The notes beneath the pieces were generated by a model. That model saw only the letters and a program-made list of their open reading frames with translations. It did no database searches and was not told the origin of the DNA. From an uncultured Alphaproteobacteria bacterium (GTDB taxonomy: Bacteria; Pseudomonadota; Alphaproteobacteria; CAAHEQ01; UBA3637), in contig CALXZG010000002.1 in NCBI GenBank assembly GCA_944393195.1, forward strand, positions 33,646-97,645: DNA of 64,000 nucleotides, read 5' to 3'. Every line of letters begins with the position of its first letter. Position 1 is the stretch's first letter. The position numbers and the translations under genes were made by a program. Below, piece after piece: positions 2,694-60,300 of the stretch.

Positions 2694-3086
2694 ATGACAC
2701 AATCCAAAGCACCGTCCCAACGCCAATTGCGCGTCGCCGAAGAAATTCGCCATGTTCTGGGACGTCAATTTTCCGAAGACAACCTGTTTATAGACGGGCT
2801 GAAACCGGCTTATGATATGATTACCGAAGTCACCGTTTCGCCTGACCTGTCCTACGCCACCGTTTTGATCCGCGCCATCGCACCGGTCAATACACTGGAA
2901 CAAGTCACCCTGCTCAACGCCCACAAAGGTGTTTTTCGGAAAGAAATCGGTCGTAAAGTCAAATTGCGCATCGTCCCCGATATTCTCTTTCGTCCGGATC
3001 TTCAGTTTGAAGAAACCAATCGGATGGACGATATCTTGAACGATCCGCGCGTCCGCGCCGACGTTGCCAAATACGCCGACGATTAA
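2694..3086 (+). CDS. rbfA: ribosome-binding factor A
   Basis: 130 aa. Contains the RVAEEIRHVLG-type RbfA N-terminus and sits immediately upstream of truB, the conserved order. Confidence 0.9.
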   Translation: MTQSKAPSQRQLRVAEEIRHVLGRQFSEDNLFIDGLKPAYDMITEVTVSPDLSYATVLIRAIAPVNTLEQVTLLNAHKGVFRKEIGRKVKLRIVPDILFRPDLQFEETNRMDDILNDPRVRADVAKYADD

Positions 3087-6529: not shown

Positions 6530-8050
6530 CTACTTTCCTTTCAAAACATCGGCTAAAACCATATACAACCGCCCTGCGTCCGATCCGATTACAATGCTGA
6601 GCAACAACTTGTTTCCATCATCCTGCCCAACCTGCTGCGTCATTTTTTCAAAAGCCGCCATATATCCCTGCGCCGCCGTCCGGAAAGCCCGATTGCTTTG
6701 ATACATTTCTTTCATTTTCTTGGCTGTACCACTCCCCAATTCCGTCCGAATATGCCGCATAAAGACTGCCTTATCTCCGCTATAATAGCGTTCCCACAAC
6801 GTTTCTTCGGCTTTCGGCGAAAATAAATGCGCCATATCCACGGATAATGTTTGCAACTGATCTAAAATAGCCGCCGCTTCGGCTAACATGTCCTTTTCAT
6901 CCTTTCCCCCGGCCAAAGGATGCGCCGCTATCTGACGCCCAACCGACTCCATTTGCTCCCCGACCGCACCTAAATCATCTTTTAAAGCCATCGCCGCTGT
7001 TCGGAAAGCCGCTGTCTGCCGCGTTAAAGCCCCGCCGGCTTGTTCAAACTGAGTCACCGCCTGTTCGGCCGTCCCCTGTAACCGACGCGCACTGTCCGCC
7101 ATACCGGATTCAACAACGGCAATCCGATTGGCAATTTTACCGACTTCCTGATCCAACAACTCACCTTGCGCCCGAAAAACAGACAACACCTTTTCTAAAT
7201 TACCGAACAACCGCGCATTCTGTTTGTGCGCATCGGTTTCATACATATCCACTGCCGCTTCAATTTTTTGCGCCGCCGTCGCTAAATCCTGAGTTGTCTG
7301 ACCCGCTTGAACCGTCGCCGCTCCAATTCGATTATTGACCGCATCGATCGCATTGATTAAAGATTGTAAATGATCCGCCCGACCGCTCAATGTTTGCGCC
7401 AAAGACTCTGTTTCTGCCACACTCTGCGTTGTTACGCGCTGTAAAATAACCGCCTGCTCCGAAAATAAATTCGCTGCCTGTTGGGTTTGCTCTGTTGCTC
7501 CCGCTGTTGCCTCAGATAAAGCCCGAATATGCTCCGCAATCTCCCGAACCGAAGACACCGTCTGGGTATCCACATGATTGATCACCGTCCCTAAATCCGC
7601 AATCCAATGCTTCAAATCATCCCGAACCGATTGCGTTTGCTCATTAACTTCATTGAAAACACTACGAAATTCCTGAATTTGCGCCCGCAACGCATCCGTC
7701 AGAGTTTTGGTATAAATAGCCCCCTCCTCCGTCGGATACACTAATTCATTTAAATACGCCCGCAACGTTTCCGCTTCATCCGCTAATTGCTCGGATCGGT
7801 CAAAATAGGCACAAACCAACCAAACAACCAACACCGGCAAACACAAGCCGCCTAGTCCACCGACAAGCTCGGCCGGTGATAAATCAGCTCTGGCCGCCCA
7901 CCATCCGGCCGTTCGTAAATAATTGATAACAAAAGCTAACCAAATAACACCAAAGACAATGGAAACAATCACACCTTTTTTGCGCCAAATAGCCGGCCGA
8001 ACCGGTGTATCCTCTTCAAATAACACTTGTTTTTGAATTTTCTTGGGCAT
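6530..8050 (-). CDS. hypothetical membrane-anchored coiled-coil protein
   Basis: 506 aa. Two N-terminal hydrophobic helices are followed by a long Q/A/T/E-rich helical region. No catalytic motif recognised. Confidence 0.6.
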   Translation of the reverse strand: MPKKIQKQVLFEEDTPVRPAIWRKKGVIVSIVFGVIWLAFVINYLRTAGWWAARADLSPAELVGGLGGLCLPVLVVWLVCAYFDRSEQLADEAETLRAYLNELVYPTEEGAIYTKTLTDALRAQIQEFRSVFNEVNEQTQSVRDDLKHWIADLGTVINHVDTQTVSSVREIAEHIRALSEATAGATEQTQQAANLFSEQAVILQRVTTQSVAETESLAQTLSGRADHLQSLINAIDAVNNRIGAATVQAGQTTQDLATAAQKIEAAVDMYETDAHKQNARLFGNLEKVLSVFRAQGELLDQEVGKIANRIAVVESGMADSARRLQGTAEQAVTQFEQAGGALTRQTAAFRTAAMALKDDLGAVGEQMESVGRQIAAHPLAGGKDEKDMLAEAAAILDQLQTLSVDMAHLFSPKAEETLWERYYSGDKAVFMRHIRTELGSGTAKKMKEMYQSNRAFRTAAQGYMAAFEKMTQQVGQDDGNKLLLSIVIGSDAGRLYMVLADVLKGK

Positions 8051-21731: not shown

Positions 21732-21899
21732 AGTGTAACAATTTAATGTTCCTTTTTTTGTTATACTTTTTGCACCTTACACGACTTTTAACTAAATGAA
21801 CAGGAACCCTTTATAATATAAATATTTTCTTCTTGCTTTACCTTTCTTTTTGTGATACATAATTTTATAACATTTTAAGGAACATTAAATTGTTACACT
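21732..21899. repeat. perfect 23-bp inverted repeats (21732-21754 and 21877-21899) flanking a 122-bp AT-rich segment; part of the gene-less copy of the pilin-family 5' module
   Basis: agtgtaacaatttaatgttcctt and aaggaacattaaattgttacact are exact reverse complements. The enclosed segment is homologous to 51436-51533, which is upstream of gene 51585. Confidence 0.85.
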
Positions 21900-22050
21900 T
21901 CATTTGACATCTGTTTGATTAATAATCTATATGTGAAGTGCCCCAAAATCGGAAAAAAGTAAAATAGGGACAGATTCGCGGATTAATGCCGTGATACCGT
22001 TTTTATTGTATGGCGATATGTAAAAAAATCCCCGCGCCGGCGGGGATAAT
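21900..22050 (-). promoter_or_regulatory. conserved 5' module of the pilin-like family (orphan copy, minus orientation)
   Basis: The reverse complement aligns with 58183-58312 and with the reverse complement of 42392-42505 (tttttacatatcgcc ... atcaaacagatgtcaaatgaa). It is preceded by the hairpin terminator of ORF 22085-22480. Confidence 0.7.
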
Positions 22051-26094: not shown

Positions 26095-27483
26095 GTGGTT
26101 AAAAGGATGTTTTATTTTTTTTCTTGTCTTTTTCGGAAAATAGGATATACTAAAATTATGTCCACTATTTTTAAAAAGGTTTCACATATGATGCATAAAA
26201 CGGCTTGTCAAAATGGGATGGCGGCGGGTTCCCGTCATTTATTTAATCGAAAAGAGCGGTGCGGCAAGGTATTTTTTACCAATCGGGATGCTATGCCGGT
26301 GGCTTTTGTTCAAGTTTCCCTGCGTGATTTAAAGGGTGGGCCGGCATGTTTGCCGGTGCCAGCTTCCGTTGTTCGGTCGTATATGATGAAACTGGCGCAA
26401 AACGGGGCTTTGACGGAAGCGGGATTTTTACCGAGTGAGGTTGAAGCGGCGCGGTGTCGCGGAATTGTCCCGACCGGGTATCAGGTGGAACAAATTGTGC
26501 CGATGGGGTGTGGCGCTCGGCCGACATTGAATAATATTTGTTTAATGGAGTCGGGGTTACAGACGTATTTGACACGTCATTTATGGCGATTGTTACATCG
26601 GGATTTAGTGGCGGAAAAGGCCGCCTGTGAGAAAAAAGGCCGACCGTATGAGCAAATTTCCGTCGGATTATCGGGATTTCGGGCGGTGATGCGGGTCACG
26701 GATTGGACGCGGGTATTGGATAAGCCTTTGTTACGGCGGGCGCGGTTAGTGGAAGAGCGGTTAAAGGTACAACAATTAAAAGCAATGCCTTTGGCGGTTG
26801 TGGCAACGGCCGACGGGGTTTTGTTGGCGCATCCGGCTTTTATGTCCATGAATGCCCAAGACGGATATCTGAAAAATGCGACGGGAATGGTTCCGGCGGT
26901 TGTGAATGTTCGCTTGGCTTCGGCGCATGAGCGGCAAGCGATTAAAGCGGAATACGGACAGGTTCGGCGGGATATTATTCGGGCTTTCGCCGCGCGGGGA
27001 CAACTGCCGGAAATTCGGCCGAATAAACAACGGGTTATTGCCCAAACAGGGTGGTTGCCGGATCGGTATCCGTACACATGTCATCACATTGTACCGCGGG
27101 CTTTGGGCGGTAGCAATGAAGCGGGAAATGTGTGTTGGTTGCCGGCGGCGGAGCATGCGGATTTACATGTCATTGTCAACAAATATCAGCACGAATTAAA
27201 AACGCGGTATGCCGATTTGGCAACACGGGGGCTGGCTTATTTGGTGTTACCGATTCCGGCTTCATTCCAAGGGCCACAATTGCGGATCATATCGCCGGTG
27301 GATCAGCGGTTGGTTTCAATTGCGGAATTGGCAGATGCGGTTTTTGCCTGTCATCCGGCGGTTAATATCCGAAAGAAGAAAGGACACTTTGCGTCTCAGG
27401 CGGTTAAACGGCGGTTATTGGTGGCCAAATATCAACGTCGTGTTCGGCGGGGCGGTATGGATGTATCGCGTGTTCATATATAG
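26095..27483 (+). CDS. basic protein with two HNH-like units (one intact HNH motif)
   Basis: The start is uncertain (ATG at 26158 or 26188 is possible). The intact motif YPYTCHHIVPRALGGSNEAGNVCWLPAAEHADLH lies at about 27067-27168. An earlier unit (VPTGYQVEQIVPMGCG...) has lost the His residues. The protein is Arg-rich. Confidence 0.65.
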   Translation: MVKRMFYFFSCLFRKIGYTKIMSTIFKKVSHMMHKTACQNGMAAGSRHLFNRKERCGKVFFTNRDAMPVAFVQVSLRDLKGGPACLPVPASVVRSYMMKLAQNGALTEAGFLPSEVEAARCRGIVPTGYQVEQIVPMGCGARPTLNNICLMESGLQTYLTRHLWRLLHRDLVAEKAACEKKGRPYEQISVGLSGFRAVMRVTDWTRVLDKPLLRRARLVEERLKVQQLKAMPLAVVATADGVLLAHPAFMSMNAQDGYLKNATGMVPAVVNVRLASAHERQAIKAEYGQVRRDIIRAFAARGQLPEIRPNKQRVIAQTGWLPDRYPYTCHHIVPRALGGSNEAGNVCWLPAAEHADLHVIVNKYQHELKTRYADLATRGLAYLVLPIPASFQGPQLRIISPVDQRLVSIAELADAVFACHPAVNIRKKKGHFASQAVKRRLLVAKYQRRVRRGGMDVSRVHI

Positions 27484-39689: not shown

Positions 39690-39762
39690 CCTGTCATCCT
39701 TGCGAAAGCGAGGATCTCTTAACATTAAAAACGCGTCATTCTCGTATAGGCGGGAATTTTTT
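39690..39762. repeat. two palindromic GTCAT-type mini-repeats
   Basis: gtcatccttgcgaaagcgaggat and gtcattctcgtataggcgggaat. They belong to the same family as the repeats around the pilin-like loci. Confidence 0.7.
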
Positions 39763-41490: not shown

Positions 41491-42357
41491 TCATCGACAG
41501 AGGGCAAATAGTAGTAGTCGACGTCCCAAACGGTTGAACCCGATCGCACCTGAACTACTACCCTGTATATAATACGAACTACATCCACTCAACTTCGTAC
41601 TTGTCCAATAAGGCTTACCTGTCGTGTGTGCCCATCCCGAACAGCTACCATAATAACTGTTTGCCTTAGCCGCCGCCAATTCTTCCGCCGTACACCCGTC
41701 CGTTAGCGGTGCTAAACTCTTCCCAAGTGCTTGACAGAAGTTCTCTGCTGCATGATAGGACATAGATCCTGTTGATGTTGTGCATGTTGTTCCGTTAATC
41801 TCTACTGTTGCAGTACTCATATTTGTGCACGTCCCAATCACCACATCACAACTATAAGTATTTTTACAATATTGATTATCCCCCGTACAATCATCATTTG
41901 TCATACATTTATTTGTTCCTAATGCGGATACACAGGTACCTATACCGGAACTATATTGACACTTCTCGTCTTTTCCACAACATTTGTCACCGCATGTAAC
42001 GCCATCCGGACAATAGACGCAATAACGAGGATCGTATCCCCCGATTTGAGCACCTGTACATCTCTCACATGTATCCTCTATATCTCCCGTATGCGTTTCG
42101 ACTGGATTTCCTTCTGTTGGACAAGCAATACAGGACGAAGACGCATATTTATTATAAAACTCACCTTCTTCACATTCCGGATAAAAATCTGTCACACATT
42201 CCCCTGTTGATAATCGATATTCATTCTCCCCACACTCTTGTTCTTCCGACTCACCATCTCCATCCCCTGAAATTTGGGAGCCGACCAACGCATTATGGAA
42301 AGCAAATAATATCTCGTTATCCTCTTGCTTTGTTTTCCCTTTTATGATACACAACAT
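41491..42357 (-). pseudogene. 5'-truncated member of the pilin-like/Cys-rich/lectin-like family (candidate silent cassette)
   Basis: The ORF begins inside the family 5' module. It joins the family alignment at EILFAFHNAL (EMLFAFANTL in the intact genes). It therefore lacks the RBS, the prepilin leader and the whole N-domain. The Cys-rich and YHAAENFC...ALCR parts are intact. Confidence 0.7.
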
Positions 42358-42596
42358 CTATAACAAAAAAATGTACATTAAATTGTTACACTTCATTTGA
42401 CATCTGTTTGATTAATAATCTATATGTGAACTTCCCCAAAATCAAAAAAAGTAAAATAGGGATAGATTCGCGGACTAATGCCGTGAATAATGTTTTTGTG
42501 TGGTGATATGTAAAAACGCCCTGTTATCACAAAAACTTTCCTGCCCGACAAAAAAGCGTCCCGAAACGGAACGCTTTCTTAACATATCGGCTACGT
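42358..42596 (-). promoter_or_regulatory. family 5' module including the recA terminator; inverted copy of 58005-58346
   Basis: The reverse complement aligns with the region downstream of rpsT apart from a roughly 110-nt repeat insertion there. It contains the palindromic site gtgtaacaatttaatgtacatttttttgttatag (42358-42391). Confidence 0.75.
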
Positions 42597-45877: not shown

Positions 45878-46280
45878 CGTCACCCCTTATTATTAGTCCA
45901 TCATCCCCTATAATTCTACGTCATCCCCGACCCCATAAGTAATCCGTCACCCCCGACTTGATCGGGGGTCTCATGACCATCTTACCCCCTTTTAAATTCC
46001 AACATCCGCTTGCCGGCGGAGACTCCCGCTGCCTTGGCGCGCGGTGTTTCATTGCCTTACGCGAAAAAACAATTCACCGGATTGTTTTTTCTTGCGCGGT
46101 ATCCTTGCGTAAGCGAGGATCTCATGACACGCACTCCATCCCTTTATAAAAAACCCGCACGGCCACCCCCCGCGGGGAAAGGCGGGGCGGCCATAATGAC
46201 CTCTTTGCCCGTGTCGGGGCTCTTAAATGCCCCGACACAAATAATTAAATAGGTAAAGGAGATATTAAAAAATCAGAACC
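45878..46280 (-). repeat. 3' flank plus repeat array of the family, inverted copy of 59742-60255
   Basis: The reverse complement is colinear with the region after gene 58482-59741: ttttttaatatctcctttacctatttaattatttgtgtcggggc, then the roughly 130-nt unit gatcctcgcttacgcaagg...ggcaagcggatgttggaat, then catgagacccccgatcaagtcggggg and GATGACGG modules. Confidence 0.8.
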
Positions 46281-46550
46281 TTAGCGACACAGGGCGTTGA
46301 CGGCGCCGCCGCTCCAACCGACAGACCCGACCGCGCCTGACCAGGGATATACATAATACGAAGCACATCCACTCAATTTTGTTGCTGTCCAATAATGGTT
46401 AGAAAGACTACTATTCAACCATCCACTACAACTACCATAATAATTATTTGCCTTAACTGTTGCTAATTCTTCCGCCGTACACCCGTCTGTCACCGATACC
46501 AAACTCTTCCCGAGGGCTTGACAGAAATTAACTGCTGCATGATACGGCAT
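46281..46550 (-). pseudogene. isolated C-terminal (lectin-like) fragment of the family
   Basis: Encodes PYHAAVNFCQALGKSLVSVTDGCTAEELATVKANNYYGSCSGW...GAVGSVGWSGGAVNALCR. Family homology stops abruptly at about 46550. Confidence 0.8.
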
Positions 46551-47090
46551 ATAATTCGTTGGTTCCGGGGGAGAGGGGAGAAGGTAATGACGAATCCGAA
46601 GTTGAAGTGTGTGAAGAGGGTGAATATCGGTTATCGACAGGAGAGTGTGTGATAGATTCACATCCGGAATGTGGTGATGGAGAGTTTTATAATAAATGGA
46701 TATCTTCTTCCTGTATTGCGTGTCCAACGGAAGGAAATCCGGTCGAAATTAGTGTATCGGATGTGGAAGATAGTTGTGAAAAATGTGCGGGGGCGCAGTA
46801 TGGTGGGTATTATCCTAATTATTGCGTCTATTGTCCATCCGGTGTTGTGTGTGGTGATCAATGTTGTGGGGAAGGACAAATGTGTCAATATAGTTCCGGT
46901 ACCTATACCTGTGTATCGGAATTAGGTGACGGCGAATGTTGGACAAATGATGATTGTGCCGGAGCCAATCAATATTGTCAAAATGGTGGAAGTTGTGAAG
47001 TGACGATTGGGACGTGTGAAACGATCAGTAGTACAGCTGTGATAATTAACGGAAAAGAGTATACGGCTTCAACGGATTATGTATCTTACC
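46551..47090 (+). pseudogene. isolated middle (Cys-rich) fragment of the family on the opposite strand
   Basis: Encodes NSLVPGERGEGNDESEVEVCEEGEYRLSTGECV...EYTASTDYVSYQAA. It abuts the minus-strand C-terminal fragment head-to-head at 46550/46551. It ends at the YHAA-equivalent point, where it joins a repeat unit through the shared string ggcagcgg. Confidence 0.8.
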
Positions 47091-47232
47091 AGGCAGCGGG
47101 AGTCGCCGCCGGCAAGCGGATGTTGGAATTGGAATGGAGTAAGATGGTCATGAGACCCCCGATCAAGTCGGGGATGACGGATTACTTATGGGGTCGGGGA
47201 TGACGGACTAATGATAAGGGAATGGCGGAAAA
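47091..47232 (+). repeat. distal repeat block (ggcagcgggagtcgccgccggcaagcggatgttggaattgga...catgagacccccgatcaagtcggggatgacgg...)
   Basis: Same orientation as 60117-60230 and inverted relative to 45905-46025. Confidence 0.8.
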
Positions 47233-51193: not shown

Positions 51194-51269
<76 letters not shown>

Positions 51270-51380
51270 TTTTAACAGCCTCCATCGAGGCTGTTTTTTT
51301 ATGGAAAATCCGGTAAATTGAGACTATTTTTGAAAAAAATGCCTTTTCGGAGAAAGGGATGTTTTTGATATGGTTGATAA

Positions 51381-51584
51381 ATCAAACAGATGTCAAATGA
51401 AGTGTAACAATTTAATGTTCATTAAAATGTTATAAAATTATGTATCACAAAAGTGAAAACAAAGCAAGAAGAAAATATTTATATTATAAAGAGTTCCTGT
51501 TCATTTGGTTAAAAGTCATGTAAGGTGCAAAAAGTATAACAAAAAAGGGAACATTTTTTTGTTATAGTTGAAAAGGAGCGATAA
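51381..51584 (+). promoter_or_regulatory. 5' control region of pilin-like gene A
   Basis: Conserved block atcaaacagatgtcaaatgaagtgtaacaatttaatgt (possible ATGTCA-17-TAATGT promoter). Palindromic site 1 lies at 51402-51435 and palindromic site 2 at 51534-51567, the latter directly before the AAAGGAG RBS. Confidence 0.5.
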
Positions 51585-52994
51585 ATGACTGAAACAAAAA
51601 ACAAAAACGGGAAAAGTGGTGTGTATCAAAATAGTGATTTAGGGGCATCGTGTGTGTGTCATAAGACCCCCGATCAGGTCGGGGATGACGGTTTAACAGT
51701 AGGGAGTGCGTGTTCAAAGATCCCCGCTTTCGCAGGGATGACGGGTAGTAACCGCGGGGAGCGGGGACGGAGCATGGTTGAGATGTTGGGCGTTCTGGCG
51801 GTCATGGGCGTATTGTCGATCGGCGGTGTGGCCGGGTATCGGTATGCGATCGATAAAATGAATGCGAATGACATTATCAATGAAGTGAAAAAAAGAGCCG
51901 TGACGGCGAGTCAACAACGCATCTTGGGACACGATATTAATTTATCGGAATACGGGGATAATGGTCGGATTAAGGGAATTCATGCCGTTACAGCGACAAA
52001 CGATTATGCGGGGGATAAAGGGTTCTTTGCGTTGACGGTATCAAATATACCGCAACGGGTATGCGATGACATTCTGAAACAGGATTGGAATATGCCGGTG
52101 GAAACAGCGGTCGGAGGTGTTGTGGTTGATGATGATACAGCCTGCGCCGCCGGGGATAATGAAATGTTGTTTGCGTTTGCGAATACGTTGGACAGCTCTC
52201 TGGTTCCGGGAGAAGGGGGAGAAGATGACGGGGATGAAGAGGAAGTACAGGAATGCGCCGAGGGTGAATATCGGTTATCGACAGGGGAATGTGTGACGGA
52301 TTCACATCCGGAATGTGGTGATGGGGAGTTTTATAATGGACTCACGGATTCTTGTACAGCCTGTCCGACGGAAGGAAATCCTGTCCATATTTATTCGTCG
52401 GATATGGAAGATACGTGTGAAAAATGTACGGGGTCGCGGTATGGTGGACCTTATCCCAGCTATTGTGTCTATTGTCCGGATGGTGTTACCTGTGGTGATC
52501 AATGTTGTGGGGAAGACGAAATGTGTCAACGCGATACAAGTTCTTGGCCATATACATTTACCTGTGTCTCTACATTAGGGGAAGGAGAATGTTTGACGAA
52601 TGATGATTGTGTAGATAATCAATATTGTCGGAATAGTTATGGTTGTGAAGTGACGGTTGGGACATGTACGGATATTAGTAGTACGCCGGTAGAGATTAAC
52701 GGAACAGAATACACAGCGTCAACGGGTTCTATGCTGTATCATGCGGCGGAGAATTTCTGTGATGCGCTTGGGAAGCGTTTAGCACCGGTGACAGACGGAT
52801 GTACGGCGGAAGAATTGGCAGCGGTTAAAGCAAATGGTTCAGGTAGTTGTTCGGGATGGGCACAGACGACGGGTGAGCGTTATTGGACAGCAACCAAATT
52901 AAGCGGATGCGCTTCGTATTATGTATGGAGTAGTAGTTCAGGCGCGGTCGGGTCTGTCGGTTGGAACGGCGGCAACTACGCCCTGTGTCGCTAA
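51585..52994 (+). CDS. modular type-IV-pilin-like protein with Cys-rich repeats and lectin-like C-terminal module (copy A; leader expanded by a repeat insertion)
   Basis: 469 aa. The class III signal-like core G-RSMVEMLGVLAVMGVLSIGGVAGY lies at aa 61-85. It is followed by a conserved head domain, an acidic linker, a region with about 25 Cys, and a C-terminal YHAAENFC...W...ALCR. Confidence 0.8.
   Translation: MTETKNKNGKSGVYQNSDLGASCVCHKTPDQVGDDGLTVGSACSKIPAFAGMTGSNRGERGRSMVEMLGVLAVMGVLSIGGVAGYRYAIDKMNANDIINEVKKRAVTASQQRILGHDINLSEYGDNGRIKGIHAVTATNDYAGDKGFFALTVSNIPQRVCDDILKQDWNMPVETAVGGVVVDDDTACAAGDNEMLFAFANTLDSSLVPGEGGEDDGDEEEVQECAEGEYRLSTGECVTDSHPECGDGEFYNGLTDSCTACPTEGNPVHIYSSDMEDTCEKCTGSRYGGPYPSYCVYCPDGVTCGDQCCGEDEMCQRDTSSWPYTFTCVSTLGEGECLTNDDCVDNQYCRNSYGCEVTVGTCTDISSTPVEINGTEYTASTGSMLYHAAENFCDALGKRLAPVTDGCTAEELAAVKANGSGSCSGWAQTTGERYWTATKLSGCASYYVWSSSSGAVGSVGWNGGNYALCR
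51612..51770 (+). repeat. 159-nt in-frame insertion of palindromic mini-repeats inside the leader of gene A
   Basis: Absent from copy B (MTEIKMENG-LSMVE). It contains agacccccgatcaggtcggggatgacgg and agatccccgctttcgcagggatgacgg, both found in intergenic copies elsewhere in the window. Confidence 0.8.
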
Positions 52995-53170: not shown

Positions 53171-53300
53171 AGGGAGTGAGATGGTCATAAGATTCCCGCT
53201 TTCGCGGGAATGACGGACTAATAATAAGGGATGACGGGATTATAATGGGATGCATTAAAAGCCCCCCCCCGAAACAAGTCCGGGGGTGACGAGGTTATCA
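53171..53300. repeat. cluster of GATGACGG-type palindromic mini-repeats
   Basis: agattcccgctttcgcgggaatgacggactaataataagggatgacgggattataatggg ... ccccccccgaaacaagtccgggggtgacg. Confidence 0.75.
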
Positions 53301-58038: not shown

Positions 58039-58481
58039 GTTGGGCAGGAAAGTTTTTGTGATAACAGGGCGTTGTTATTTTTCCGTCATCCCTGCGCAGG
58101 CGGGGATTTTTGGACGCACAACCACACCTTTAAAAGACCCCCGATCAGGTCGGGGGTGACAGGGTACTTGTGGATCGGGGATTTTTTTACATATCGCCAT
58201 ACAATAGAAACGGTATTCACGGCATTAGTCCGTGAATCTGTCCCTATTTTACTTTTTTCTGATTTTGGGTCACTCCCAATCTAAATGATTTATCAAACAG
58301 ATGTCAAATGAAGTGTAACAATTTAATGTACCTTAAAATGTTACAGTTTTTATAACATAATCAGGAATGCGATGCAAGTCCTTTTTTATTAAGAATTAAT
58401 CGGTTATCGATTTGTCATTTTTTGTCCAAACTGTAACACAAAAGGGTACATTTTTGTGTTACAGTTCGAAAGGAGTATTAA
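58039..58481 (+). promoter_or_regulatory. 5' control region of pilin-like gene B
   Basis: Conserved module 58183-58346, with a roughly 110-nt mini-repeat insertion at 58072-58182. Site 1 lies at 58313-58346. Site 2, ctgtaacacaaaagggtacatttttgtgttacag, lies at 58431-58464 (13-bp arms), followed by the AAAGGAG RBS. Confidence 0.5.
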
Positions 58482-59741
58482 ATGACTGAAATCAAAATGG
58501 AAAATGGTCTGAGTATGGTTGAGATGTTGGGTGTTCTGGCGGTGGCGGGTGTCCTGTCGATTGGCGGTGTGGCCGGATATCGGTATGCGATTGATAAAAT
58601 GAATGCGAATGACATTATCAACGAAGTGCGGAAACGGGCCGTGACGGCAAGTCAACAACGCATCTTGGGACACGATATTAATTTATCGGAATACGGGGAT
58701 AATGGCCGGATTAAAGGAATTCATGCCGTTACAGCGACAAACGATTATGCTGGGGATAAAGGGTTCTTTGCGTTAACGGTATCAGCAGTCCCGCAACGGG
58801 TATGTGATGACATCCTGAAACAGGATTGGGCAATGCCGGTAGAAACCGCCGTCGGTGGTGTTGTGGTCGATGATGATACCGCCTGCGCCGAAGGGGATAA
58901 TGAGATGTTGTTTGCGTTTGCGAATACGTTGGATAATTCGTTGGTCCCGGGAGAAGGGGGAGGAGAGAACGGAGATGAATCGGAAGTACAGGAATGCGCC
59001 GAGGGCGAATATTGGTCATCAAGTTTAGAAACATGTGTGACAGACCCGCATACGGAGTGCGCGGATGGGGAGTTTTATAATGGATATACAAACTCCTGTA
59101 CGGCTTGTCCAACAGATGGAAATGCCGTTCCAAATGATTCATTAGATATGGAAGATACGTGTGAAAAATGCGTAGGGTCGCGGTATGGTGGATCTCATCC
59201 CGGCTATTGTGTCTATTGTCCGGATGGCGTTACCTGTGGCGATCAATGTTGTGGCGAAGGACAAATGTGTCAACGTAGTGGTCCTTATCCGTATACATTT
59301 ACCTGTGTCTCTGCATTAGGGACAAATGAATGTATGACGAATGATGATTGTACGGGAGCAAATCAATATTGCCAGAATGATTCTGGTTGTAGTGCGACAA
59401 ATGGGACGTGTCAAACGATCAGTAGTACGACGGTGACGATTAACGAAAAAACATACACAGCATCGACAGATCGTATGTCGTATCATGCGGCAGAGAACTT
59501 CTGTGATGCGCTTGGGAAAAAATTAGCACCGGTGACAGACGGGTGTACATCGGAAGAATTGGCAGCGGTTAAAGCAAACAATTATTATGGCAGTTGCACA
59601 GGATGGGCACACACGACGGGTAGGTATTATTGGACAAGTACGAAGATAAGCGGGTGTCATTCGTATTATGTAAGCAATAGCAGTTCAGGCGCGGTCGGGT
59701 CTGTCCATCCGTTCGTCGGCTACCACGCCCTTTGTCGCTAA
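58482..59741 (+). CDS. modular type-IV-pilin-like protein with Cys-rich repeats and lectin-like C-terminal module (copy B, canonical)
   Basis: 419 aa. The N-terminus MTEIKMENG-LSMVEMLGVLAVAGVLSIGGVAGYRY has Gly at -1, Glu at +5 and a hydrophobic helix. The downstream architecture matches copy A. Confidence 0.85.
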   Translation: MTEIKMENGLSMVEMLGVLAVAGVLSIGGVAGYRYAIDKMNANDIINEVRKRAVTASQQRILGHDINLSEYGDNGRIKGIHAVTATNDYAGDKGFFALTVSAVPQRVCDDILKQDWAMPVETAVGGVVVDDDTACAEGDNEMLFAFANTLDNSLVPGEGGGENGDESEVQECAEGEYWSSSLETCVTDPHTECADGEFYNGYTNSCTACPTDGNAVPNDSLDMEDTCEKCVGSRYGGSHPGYCVYCPDGVTCGDQCCGEGQMCQRSGPYPYTFTCVSALGTNECMTNDDCTGANQYCQNDSGCSATNGTCQTISSTTVTINEKTYTASTDRMSYHAAENFCDALGKKLAPVTDGCTSEELAAVKANNYYGSCTGWAHTTGRYYWTSTKISGCHSYYVSNSSSGAVGSVHPFVGYHALCR

Positions 59742-60300
59742 GGTTCCCGCTTTTTTAATATCTCCTTTACCTATTTAATTATTTGTGTCGGGGCATTTAA
59801 GAGCCCCGACACGGGCAAAGAGGTCATTATGGCCGCCCCCGCTTTCCCCGCGGGGGTGGCCGTGCGCGTTTTTTATAAAGGGATGGAGTGCGTGTCATGA
59901 GATCCTCGGGTCAAGCCCAAGGATGACAGTTTTATAATAAGGGATTGTGTTAAAAGATTCCCGCTTGCGCGGGAATGACGAGATATTTATATGGGATGAC
60001 GTAGGAGGGGAGGAGTGAGGTGGTTGAAAGATCCTCGCTTACGCAAGGATACCGCGCAAGAAAAAACAATCCGGTGAATTGTTTTTTCGCGTAAGGCAAT
60101 GAAACACCTCGCGCCAAGGCAGCGGAAGTCGCCGTCGGCAAGCGGATGTTGGAATTGGAAAGGTGTGTGCGTCATGAGACCCCCGATCAAGTCGGGGATG
60201 ACGGATTACTTATGGGGTCGGGGATGACGGATTACTTATGGGGTCGGGGATGACGGGGTATTTATAGGGGGGGGTGACGGAGGCAGGGAACGAGGTGTGG
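59742..60300 (+). repeat. 3' flank and dense repeat array, including 2.3 tandem copies of a 26-nt unit at 60197-60256
   Basis: Contains the hairpin gtgtcggggc...gccccgacac, the roughly 130-nt unit at 60030-60160, catgagacccccgatcaagtcggggatgacgg, and tandem gatgacggattacttatggggtcggg units. Confidence 0.8.

Follow-up and report, generated by a model that had tools for sequence, protein, structure and literature searches.

Two pilin-like paralogs and the leader block that separates them

The subject of this work is a pair of pilin-like genes, one of them with palindromic repeats lying in frame within its predicted leader, found in a stretch of 64,000 nucleotides from an uncultured alphaproteobacterium (contig CALXZG010000002.1, positions 33,646 to 97,645 of the forward strand), which is here called the window. 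The two genes, copy A and copy B, are two full-length paralogs of one family and show an identity of ~80%. Copy A (51585..52994, + strand) is an open reading frame (ORF) of 469 aa comprising a 61-aa leader, an N-domain of predicted pilin fold, a Cys-rich middle part and a C-type-lectin-like C-domain, and copy B (58482..59741, +) codes for 419 aa, of which the first nine would form a short leader in MTEIKMENG↓LSMVE, where the arrow marks the predicted cleavage site. A Shine-Dalgarno (SD) sequence, AAGGAG (51573..51578, +), stands 6 nt 5′ of the ATG of copy A at 51585, as seen both by direct reading and in an SD scan.

Alignment of the two 5′ ends at the DNA level revealed that the upstream DNA, the SD and the context of the ATG match, and that copy A has a single, gap-free additional block after its codon 9. 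This block of 156 nt, or 52 codons (51612..51767, +), is missing from copy B and was delimited by alignment, direct count and analysis of translation and frame; on its 3′ side the alignment picks up again at GG.C.GAG.ATGGTTGAG. A first-pass annotation of this DNA, made from the sequence by a model, had given the insert as 159 nt or 53 aa, wrongly including the Arg codon at 51768-51770, and the leader as 62 aa, where direct counting from Met1 to Gly61 gives 61. Its statement that the insert lies in frame and directly 5′ of a prepilin-type cleavage motif was borne out by the alignment and the frame analysis. The insert is open in frame 0 only, with stops in both remaining frames, and a shuffled 156-nt sequence of matching composition stays open in ~5% of trials.

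Palindromic repeats within the leader and around the paralogs

The insert contains two palindromic units, in agreement with the earlier proposal that it is made of interspersed repeats. Unit 1, GTCATAAGACCCCCGATCAGGTCGGGGATGACGG (51658..51691, +), is read as KTPDQVGDDG and forms the hairpin CCCCGA-TCAGG-TCGGGG at 51668-51684, with a predicted RNA energy of -15.2 kcal/mol; its tail, GATGACGG, is a CGTC tag on the opposite strand. Unit 2, AAGATCCCCGCTTTCGCAGGGATGACGG (51717..51744, +), is read as KIPAFAGMTG, forms the hairpin ATCCCCGC-TTTC-GCAGGGAT at 51720-51739 (-9.5 kcal/mol) and ends in the tail GACGG. Moreover, the entire 156-nt block may come from a repeat cluster, because its left portion (GTGTGTATCAAAA) resembles the customary left flank of a unit (GTGTGTGTCATAA).

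Matches of the insert repeats elsewhere in the window were found at 60163-60204 (93% over 42 nt, E 1e-11), 47147-47180 (94% over 34 nt), 45944-45977 on the - strand (91% over 34 nt), 58134-58160 (96% over 27 nt), 58083-58112 on the - strand (90% over 30 nt) and 53189-53216 (89% over 28 nt), with further ones at 39693-39717 (-) and 59947-59980; the three intergenic sites already listed by the first-pass annotation were all recovered in this search. In line with this, a degenerate pattern made for unit 1, AGAYYCCCG-N7-CGGGRATGAC, with at most two mismatches, has five matches compared with 0.00 expected from 100 shuffles. The stretch from 39.7 to 60.3 kb contains no fewer than 18 units or half-units; leaving aside the pair in the leader, none is inside an intact gene of this window, and they are concentrated in the DNA that flanks the paralogs and the paralog fragments. 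Intergenic units follow copy A on its 3′ side (53174..53240, +), and a pair with both repeat types (58083..58160, with 58083-58112 on the - strand and 58134-58160 on the + strand) precedes copy B. On the 3′ side of copy B, a cluster at 59885..60265 (+) ends in 26-nt tandem half-units at 60197-60265, and self-comparison detected an inverted copy of this cluster, also intergenic, at 45919..46190 (-). A truncated fragment of a paralog also ends in such units (47133..47215, +). Beyond this genome, the unit at 53191-53216 is identical in all 26 nt to positions 2818-2843 of the related locus L010, which comes from a different species-level metagenome-assembled genome (MAG); since units are common to different species-level MAGs, the repeat families are, as far as these sequences tell, clade-wide.

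No larger RNA structure came to light: folding of the whole 241-nt 5′ region gave z = -0.94, with nothing beyond the two local hairpins, and a scan of the window with Rfam returned three tRNAs only. Early stop of transcription by the hairpins is not suggested either, because a terminator scan gave no terminator-like site within the leader.

Relationship to known palindromic elements

CGTC-tagged repetitive extragenic palindromes (REPs) are defined by a terminal CGTC, a stem of 8-9 bp beginning with AT, a loop of 4-5 nt and a 3-nt tail (Di Nocera et al. 2013, PMC3733652). Read on the minus strand, unit 2 is C-CGTC-ATCCCTGC-GAAA-GCGGGGAT-CTT and unit 1 is C-CGTC-ATCCCCGA-CCTGA-TCGGGGGT-CTT, so that both have the CGTC tag, an 8-bp stem beginning with AT with one mismatch each and a loop of 4-5 nt, and by sequence both fit this class. 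According to the same work, CGTC-tagged REPs predominate in Alphaproteobacteria, are mostly extragenic and come without a dedicated transposase; GTAG- and CGTC-tagged REPs are known inside genes, and the CGTC type is occasionally intragenic and in frame, with clusters that code for 43-82 aa (PMC3733652). The repeats described here share with them the CGTC at one end (...GATGACGG, which is CCGTCATC... on the opposite strand) and the distribution of dispersed copies, mostly extragenic with some in-frame intragenic clusters. They depart from them in that the cluster occupies the part of a class III signal peptide that precedes the cleavage site, in that it recurs in one gene family across species, and in that the 3-bp tail is CTT where the consensus has CCA. 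Orientation differs as well: head-to-head dimers are the rule for the CGTC class (PMC3733652), whereas the insert units and the arrays at 60163-60265 are direct, or head-to-tail, and the pair at 58083-58160 is inverted.

The analogy with Rickettsia palindromic elements (RPEs), drawn by the first-pass annotation, proved apt. RPEs are palindromic repeats found in frame inside protein-coding genes (Ogata et al. 2000; reviewed in PMC10969869), and the CGTC class to which the present units conform includes RPE-4 and RPE-6 (PMC3733652). In both cases an in-frame palindromic insertion in alphaproteobacterial genes is tolerated by the host protein, and this likeness in class features possibly reflects a real relatedness. 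On the other hand, the first-described RPEs are single elements of ~150 bp that are kept in the mature protein, typically of varied metabolic genes, whereas here we find two units of ~30-50 nt each, flanks included, and the segment that holds them is one whose removal by cleavage is predicted.

A miniature inverted-repeat transposable element would be expected to have terminal inverted repeats, and the ends of the 156-nt block have none. Direct repeats of cleavage-site DNA, 12-14 nt long, bracket the block in two related loci, L010 (GAATCGGGAC[A/G]TTC, at 2794-2811 and 2992-3009) and L020 (GAATCGGGACGT, at 2920-2934 and 2998-3012). The equivalent in the window is weak (GGGAAAAGT compared with GGACGGAGC), and weaker versions also occur in L043 and L066. 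These repeats hint at insertion at the cleavage-site DNA with target duplication, and they could represent either such a target-site duplication or a capture driven by microhomology.

A family of predicted pilin fold with a lectin-like domain

In type IV filament systems, a prepilin enters the membrane with its leader facing the cytoplasm, and the A24 prepilin peptidase removes this leader by cutting after the Gly at -1. In copy A, the predicted processing motif G61↓R62-S-M-V-E66 (51765..51782, +) has the Gly at -1 and the Glu at +5 of class III signal peptides, followed by ~20 hydrophobic residues that form the predicted helix (G↓RSMVE-MLGVLAVMGVLSIGG), and a prepilin-type leader, to be cleaved at this point, is the best reading of this N-terminus. 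Conservation of the motif is strong. Among 87 N-termini, counted as motif sites in the family DNA examined, Gly at -1 and Arg at +1 are each seen in 86, Glu is found at +5 in every motif match, and the sequence E[ST]G↓RSM[VI]EMLGVLA[VI] is essentially invariant in members down to 40% identity. The lone exception at +1 is the Leu of copy B (CTG, 58509-58511), where CGG has become CTG; elsewhere the residue is an Arg encoded by CGN. The first-pass annotation had proposed that the insertion changes the +1 residue to Arg and hits a processing signal. The polarity turned out to be the reverse, Arg being the family norm and Leu the deviation, and with G-1, R+1, E+5 and the hydrophobic helix all intact in copy A, it is the pre-cleavage leader alone that is lengthened.

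Searches of Pfam and NCBIfam with the full-length proteins returned no match. An AlphaFold2 model was computed for copy B, with a mean predicted local distance difference test score (pLDDT) of 79.6 and values below 50 for residues 1-32; in it, a long helix at residues 13-61 leads into a beta-sheet, with a Cys-rich region of beta structure next and an alpha/beta domain at the C-terminus. Foldseek, run with this same model, placed type IVb pilins first, namely TcpA (8uhf) and a pilin of enterotoxigenic Escherichia coli (9iuf), with a probability of 1.0, E values of 2e-3 to 4e-3 and a TM score of ~0.45-0.48 on the target, and matched the C-domain to C-type lectin-like domains. A profile search of the sequences in PDB gave weak C-type lectin matches only. 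Altogether, the family is predicted to join a type IV pilin fold to a C-type-lectin-like domain.

Type IVb pilins (TcpA, CofA/LngA, BfpA), the best structural matches of the N-domain, also share with it the Gly at -1 and the Glu at +5, and have leaders that exceed the 5-7 aa of type IVa pilins: about 25 aa in TcpA and about 30 aa in CofA and LngA, within a characterised range of ~13-30 aa. The leaders considered here, at 61-87 aa, are several times longer and built of repeat DNA, and the proteins differ from type IVb pilins in the Arg at +1, the large Cys-rich region and the lectin-like C-terminal module. Modular type IV pilins that carry adhesin or lectin modules have been described, PilB and PilC of Streptococcus sanguinis among them, and they too are reported to fuse a pilin N-domain to a C-terminal binding module (PMC8179133, PMC9934059). 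They belong to another lineage and bear another module, whereas the fold here is C-type-lectin-like and the proteins form a multigene family with hundreds of loci scattered among housekeeping genes.

In this regard, at least 312 family loci were confirmed by tblastn in species-representative genomes. The retrieved loci, 80 of 80, belong to uncultured gut Alphaproteobacteria genomes, most of them labelled MAGs, with host animals such as water buffalo, yak, sheep, roe deer and rabbit in many of the record titles; one is titled "uncultured Rickettsiales". The genes around the copies are those of an ordinary chromosome (dnaE, thrS, ffh, recA, rho, cysS, grpE). In one related MAG (L063, 43-4742), genes for a T2SSE ATPase and a T2SSF platform protein are directly followed by three small genes that share the family N-terminus, here G↓RSMIEM, a run that, from its gene order, looks like a type IV filament operon.

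Recurrence of long leaders in the clade

The same 52-aa insert, with few substitutions, occurs in P0121, P0025, P0011, P0013, P0024, P0125 and P0123, and an assembly artefact was rejected on account of its presence in these independent assemblies. P0121 is the ortholog of copy A, 98% identical and from another sample, and P0025 is a further paralog on the same contig of 116,756 nt. Other mixtures of repeat units are found in P0014, P0016, P0017 and P0020, all of them between common borders, which read M-T-E-x-K-x-x-N-G/R/V-K-S/N on the left and ...ERG↓RSMVE on the right. In P0031 (L086, 1501-1740), the left border is kept while the right one is deleted together with G↓RSMV (...SSNAHNE-MLGVLAV), so that the ORF is intact and the predicted cleavage site gone. 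The start of P0015 at MLGV was also considered as a disruption by repeats, and was found to be due to a small deletion instead, which leaves MENG↓RSMVE. Leaders differ even between close relatives: P0014 and P0125 are near-identical in their mature parts and have different leader repeat units, and P0122, which shares 89% identity with copy A across 285 residues, has a short leader.

Counted from the ATG that has an SD, the leaders of more distant species measure 6 to 87 aa, and those of at least 30 aa make up about 30% (~23 of 75 loci), spread over many MAG species. For most of these long leaders, DNA segments recur at non-leader positions in the same genome set (for example in L066, L029, L045, L060, L072, L065 and L010), and for L025, L034 and L075 no such match was found in that set. 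Because their DNA recurs outside leaders, such long leaders can be taken to hold interspersed repeats of several families. When the 52-aa insert by itself served as query against the protein collection, two truncated leader ORFs were all that came back; this search missed even copy A and provides no census.

The insertion is not confined to one paralog: the block and its variants are present in many paralogs and orthologs, and long leaders arose independently in other species of the clade. An ancestral long leader was likewise rejected, given that short leaders dominate in all species and that the relative P0122 is short. From this distribution, short leaders are clearly the prevailing and ancestral form, and long leaders are derived.

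Reading of the leader and weighing of alternatives

Several observations bear on whether the repeats are translated. The context AAGGAG-N6-ATG-ACT-GAA, upstream of the repeats, is common to copy A, copy B and L082. Five close variants of the block, 150-285 nt long and of different repeat content, are open in frame 0 only, the two other frames each being interrupted by several stops. About 11 distal strong SD-ATG sites were scored, and in seven loci (L010, L034, L038, L043, L045, L075 and copy A) such a site stands over 90 nt upstream, in frame and with no stop in between; when weaker and less secure SD sites are included, the in-frame count becomes 17 of 21 (p ~1e-5). Furthermore, the leader tandem unit of P0017 measures 27 nt, or nine codons (GMTENIGSA, twice), compared with a period of 26 nt in the intergenic arrays (60197-60265; L084, ~230-285). 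Read-through from the ATG at 51585 is, on these grounds, most likely. As for constraint, between copy A (P0009) and P0121 residues differ at 5 of 52 positions in the insert and at 5 of 417 elsewhere (Fisher p = 0.002), which means that the amino acids of the insert have changed ~8 times as often as those of the remaining protein. A tolerated, weakly constrained passenger fits these data better than the abolished, delayed or re-routed secretion considered in the first-pass annotation, and a kept frame with an unconstrained peptide is the pattern expected of a passenger in a discarded segment and not of a functional pro-peptide.

The explanation we favour, with a probability of roughly 0.6, is that the leader acts as a tolerated landing site for repeats, which become embedded in frame, are read through and are cleaved off; the make-up of the insert, the identity of its repeats, their recurrence, the mostly kept frame, the relaxed constraint on the peptide and the prediction of a pilin fold are what the sequences show, and the start codon, the cleavage at G61↓R62 and the near-neutrality of the insert are what we infer. 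Two CGTC-tagged REP-type repeats, of the kind that fills the DNA flanking the paralogs, would have become embedded in frame in the leader of copy A; translation would start at the conserved SD-ATG at 51585 and run through them, and the intact motif would let prepilin peptidase remove the leader. The 52 extra residues would be discarded along with it, because a prepilin leader stays cytoplasmic and is removed by the peptidase, and because the region from G-1 to E+5 and the helix is unchanged. The leader would then be one of the few intragenic sites where repeats can land, expand and turn over at little cost, and its recurrent colonisation would follow from its being permissive and adjoining repeat-rich flanks in a recombining multigene family.

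Several points weigh against this explanation. A leader of 61-87 aa lies well beyond that of any characterised prepilin, and an Arg at +1 is unusual among characterised pilins. The sole family match of the N-terminus is Pfam N_methyl (PF07963), and this falls below the cut-off (13.7-14.6 compared with 21.2 bits, E 0.02-0.05). Neither a prepilin peptidase nor pilus machinery turned up in the window, in the ~10 kb past its low-coordinate end or in the DNA covered at the other end, which stops just outside the window genes; the genes seen there were housekeeping ones. The frame is also not always kept: in L082 (2743-3000), which matches P0018, a 10-nt tandem duplication (GAGAGACGGA) in the array brings a stop before the cleavage site and leaves a 404-aa mature ORF intact; P0127 and P0126 are truncated leader ORFs, the former (48 aa) ending in DGEKRRHLF and a stop as L082 does; and L037 and L039 have an SD-ATG out of frame. 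If independent events are counted conservatively, 7 of 11 and 6 of 9 are in frame, an excess with p ~0.04 only, and matches from protein databases are biased towards open frames.

The repeats might instead be effectively 5′ untranslated, with translation beginning at 51738 (giving the 10-aa leader of MTGSNRGERG↓RSMVE) or at 51774 and the long leader being an annotation artefact from an open upstream frame. In favour of this, the repeat tail GGGATGAC supplies an ATG that lies in frame and 6-13 codons 5′ of the cleavage site in copy A, where unit 2 provides the one at 51738..51740 (+), and in many long-leader relatives, such as L019, L038, L045, L055, L060, L061, L066, L043 and L062; moreover, frame-broken variants retain intact mature ORFs, and Di Nocera et al. 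(PMC3733652) warned that N-terminal REPs are often truly extragenic through misannotated starts. We nevertheless consider it unlikely. The internal ATGs have no SD and lie in or beside hairpin stems, whereas the strong SD-ATG-MTE of the short-leader paralogs stands upstream and in frame, and the five variants mentioned above are open in frame 0 only. Some long leaders (L025, L031, L052) lack any internal start, initiation at 51774 would drop the Gly at -1 and leave no cleavable leader, and many of the GMT cases are paralogs of one MAG, a recurrence that is not independent.

The leader array could work as an unstable switch: when units are gained or lost or slip, the frame would change, and individual adhesin-like members would go on or off in a contingency manner resembling phase variation, a rather improbable role in our judgement. 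The differing leader repeats of the near-identical alleles P0014 and P0125, the short leader of P0122, the coexistence of unit periods of 26 and 27 nt, and the variable lectin-like C-domains with cassette-like fragments nearby all speak for it, as do several frame breaks that arose from small rearrangements within the array, with the mature ORF of L082 intact and P0127 sharing its truncated ending. However, the changes seen are heterogeneous rearrangements and not simple slippage in repeat number, broken copies could reflect mere pseudogenes or a faulty assembly of repeat-rich DNA, and most family members are short-leadered and free of such an array. Similarly improbable is a reading that joins such a switch to the discarded leader, in which the family can host unstable repeat clusters in the leader because the leader is discarded; there, a hypermutable array would, through units won or lost and periods of 26 as opposed to 27 nt, toggle the frame and vary the lectin-tipped pilin-like adhesins that are displayed, with insertions possibly targeted to cleavage-site DNA, direct duplications of which flank them in several lineages. 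Finally, copy A and the other long-leader copies might be decaying or non-functional, gathering repeats neutrally before loss. Truncated paralogs and an orphan promoter block attest to decay in the family, and some long-leader copies are frame-broken or lack a cleavage site (L082, P0127, P0031), yet copy A retains its 469-aa ORF, its SD, its upstream block and an undamaged motif, the ortholog P0121 shows 98% identity to it and differs outside the insert at only 5 of 417 positions, and long-leader forms with intact ORFs persist in several assemblies and species, all of which makes this the least credible of the readings considered.

Upstream block, gene fragments and neighbourhood

A conserved, promoter-like upstream block with TGTAACA...TGTTACA palindromes precedes copy A (51368..51564, +). 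It matches an inverted copy at 21736-21932 with 91% identity, and has further copies at 58254-58351 and 42353-42450. The paired palindromes occur in seven window copies (51401-51440, 51533-51572, 58312-58351, 21732-21903, 42357-42396) and look like putative sites for a family-specific regulator. The block at 21736-21994 (-), 91% identical to 51368-51564, is an orphan with no pilin-like gene behind it. About 100 nt 5′ of the upstream block of copy A we find a tRNA-Thr (CGT) at 51194-51269, followed by a terminator-like hairpin at 51274-51295.

Partial paralogs lie at 41491-42357 (-), 46320-46559 (-) and 46535-47122 (+). One of them has kept the family upstream block (42353-42450) and is missing the pilin N-domain. 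Two of the fragments are arranged head-to-head and flanked by inverted repeat clusters at 45919-45991 and 47133-47205, and an ORF at 46559-47203 extends into a repeat unit; this layout, as far as can be judged from the arrangement, resembles that of silent cassettes or recombination debris. Elsewhere in the window, among the housekeeping genes, four sizeable ORFs of 402, 506, 462 and 590 aa (805-2013, 6530-8050, 26095-27483 and 27493-29265) have no Pfam match at E <= 1e-5.

Significance

In-frame palindromic repeats as such are already known, as RPEs (PMC10969869) and as intragenic GTAG- and CGTC-tagged REPs (PMC3733652). Within the literature available for searching, no relevant work came up that links such repeats to signal peptides or prepilin leaders; what is new is their presence in a class III signal peptide, ahead of its cleavage site, their recurrence in one family across species and the resulting leaders of 61-87 aa. 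The family itself, with its predicted pilin fold, lectin module and hundreds of loci, may be of at least equal interest to the repeats.

With this analysis, a large unannotated family with pilin fold and C-type-lectin-like domains comes to light in uncultured gut Alphaproteobacteria, for which the choice of start codons and the prediction of signal peptides need care in annotation. The polymorphism of its leaders, together with the fragments that resemble cassettes, could be relevant to how surfaces vary in the gut. If the explanation favoured here is true, prepilin peptidase would handle leaders of 60-90 residues, several times any characterised length. To our knowledge, it is rarely clear why proteins tolerate intragenic palindromic repeats. 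In this family the tolerance would be explained simply, in that the leader with its repeats is cut away before the protein comes into use, and the leaders of class III signal peptides would be a natural safe harbour for selfish repeats.

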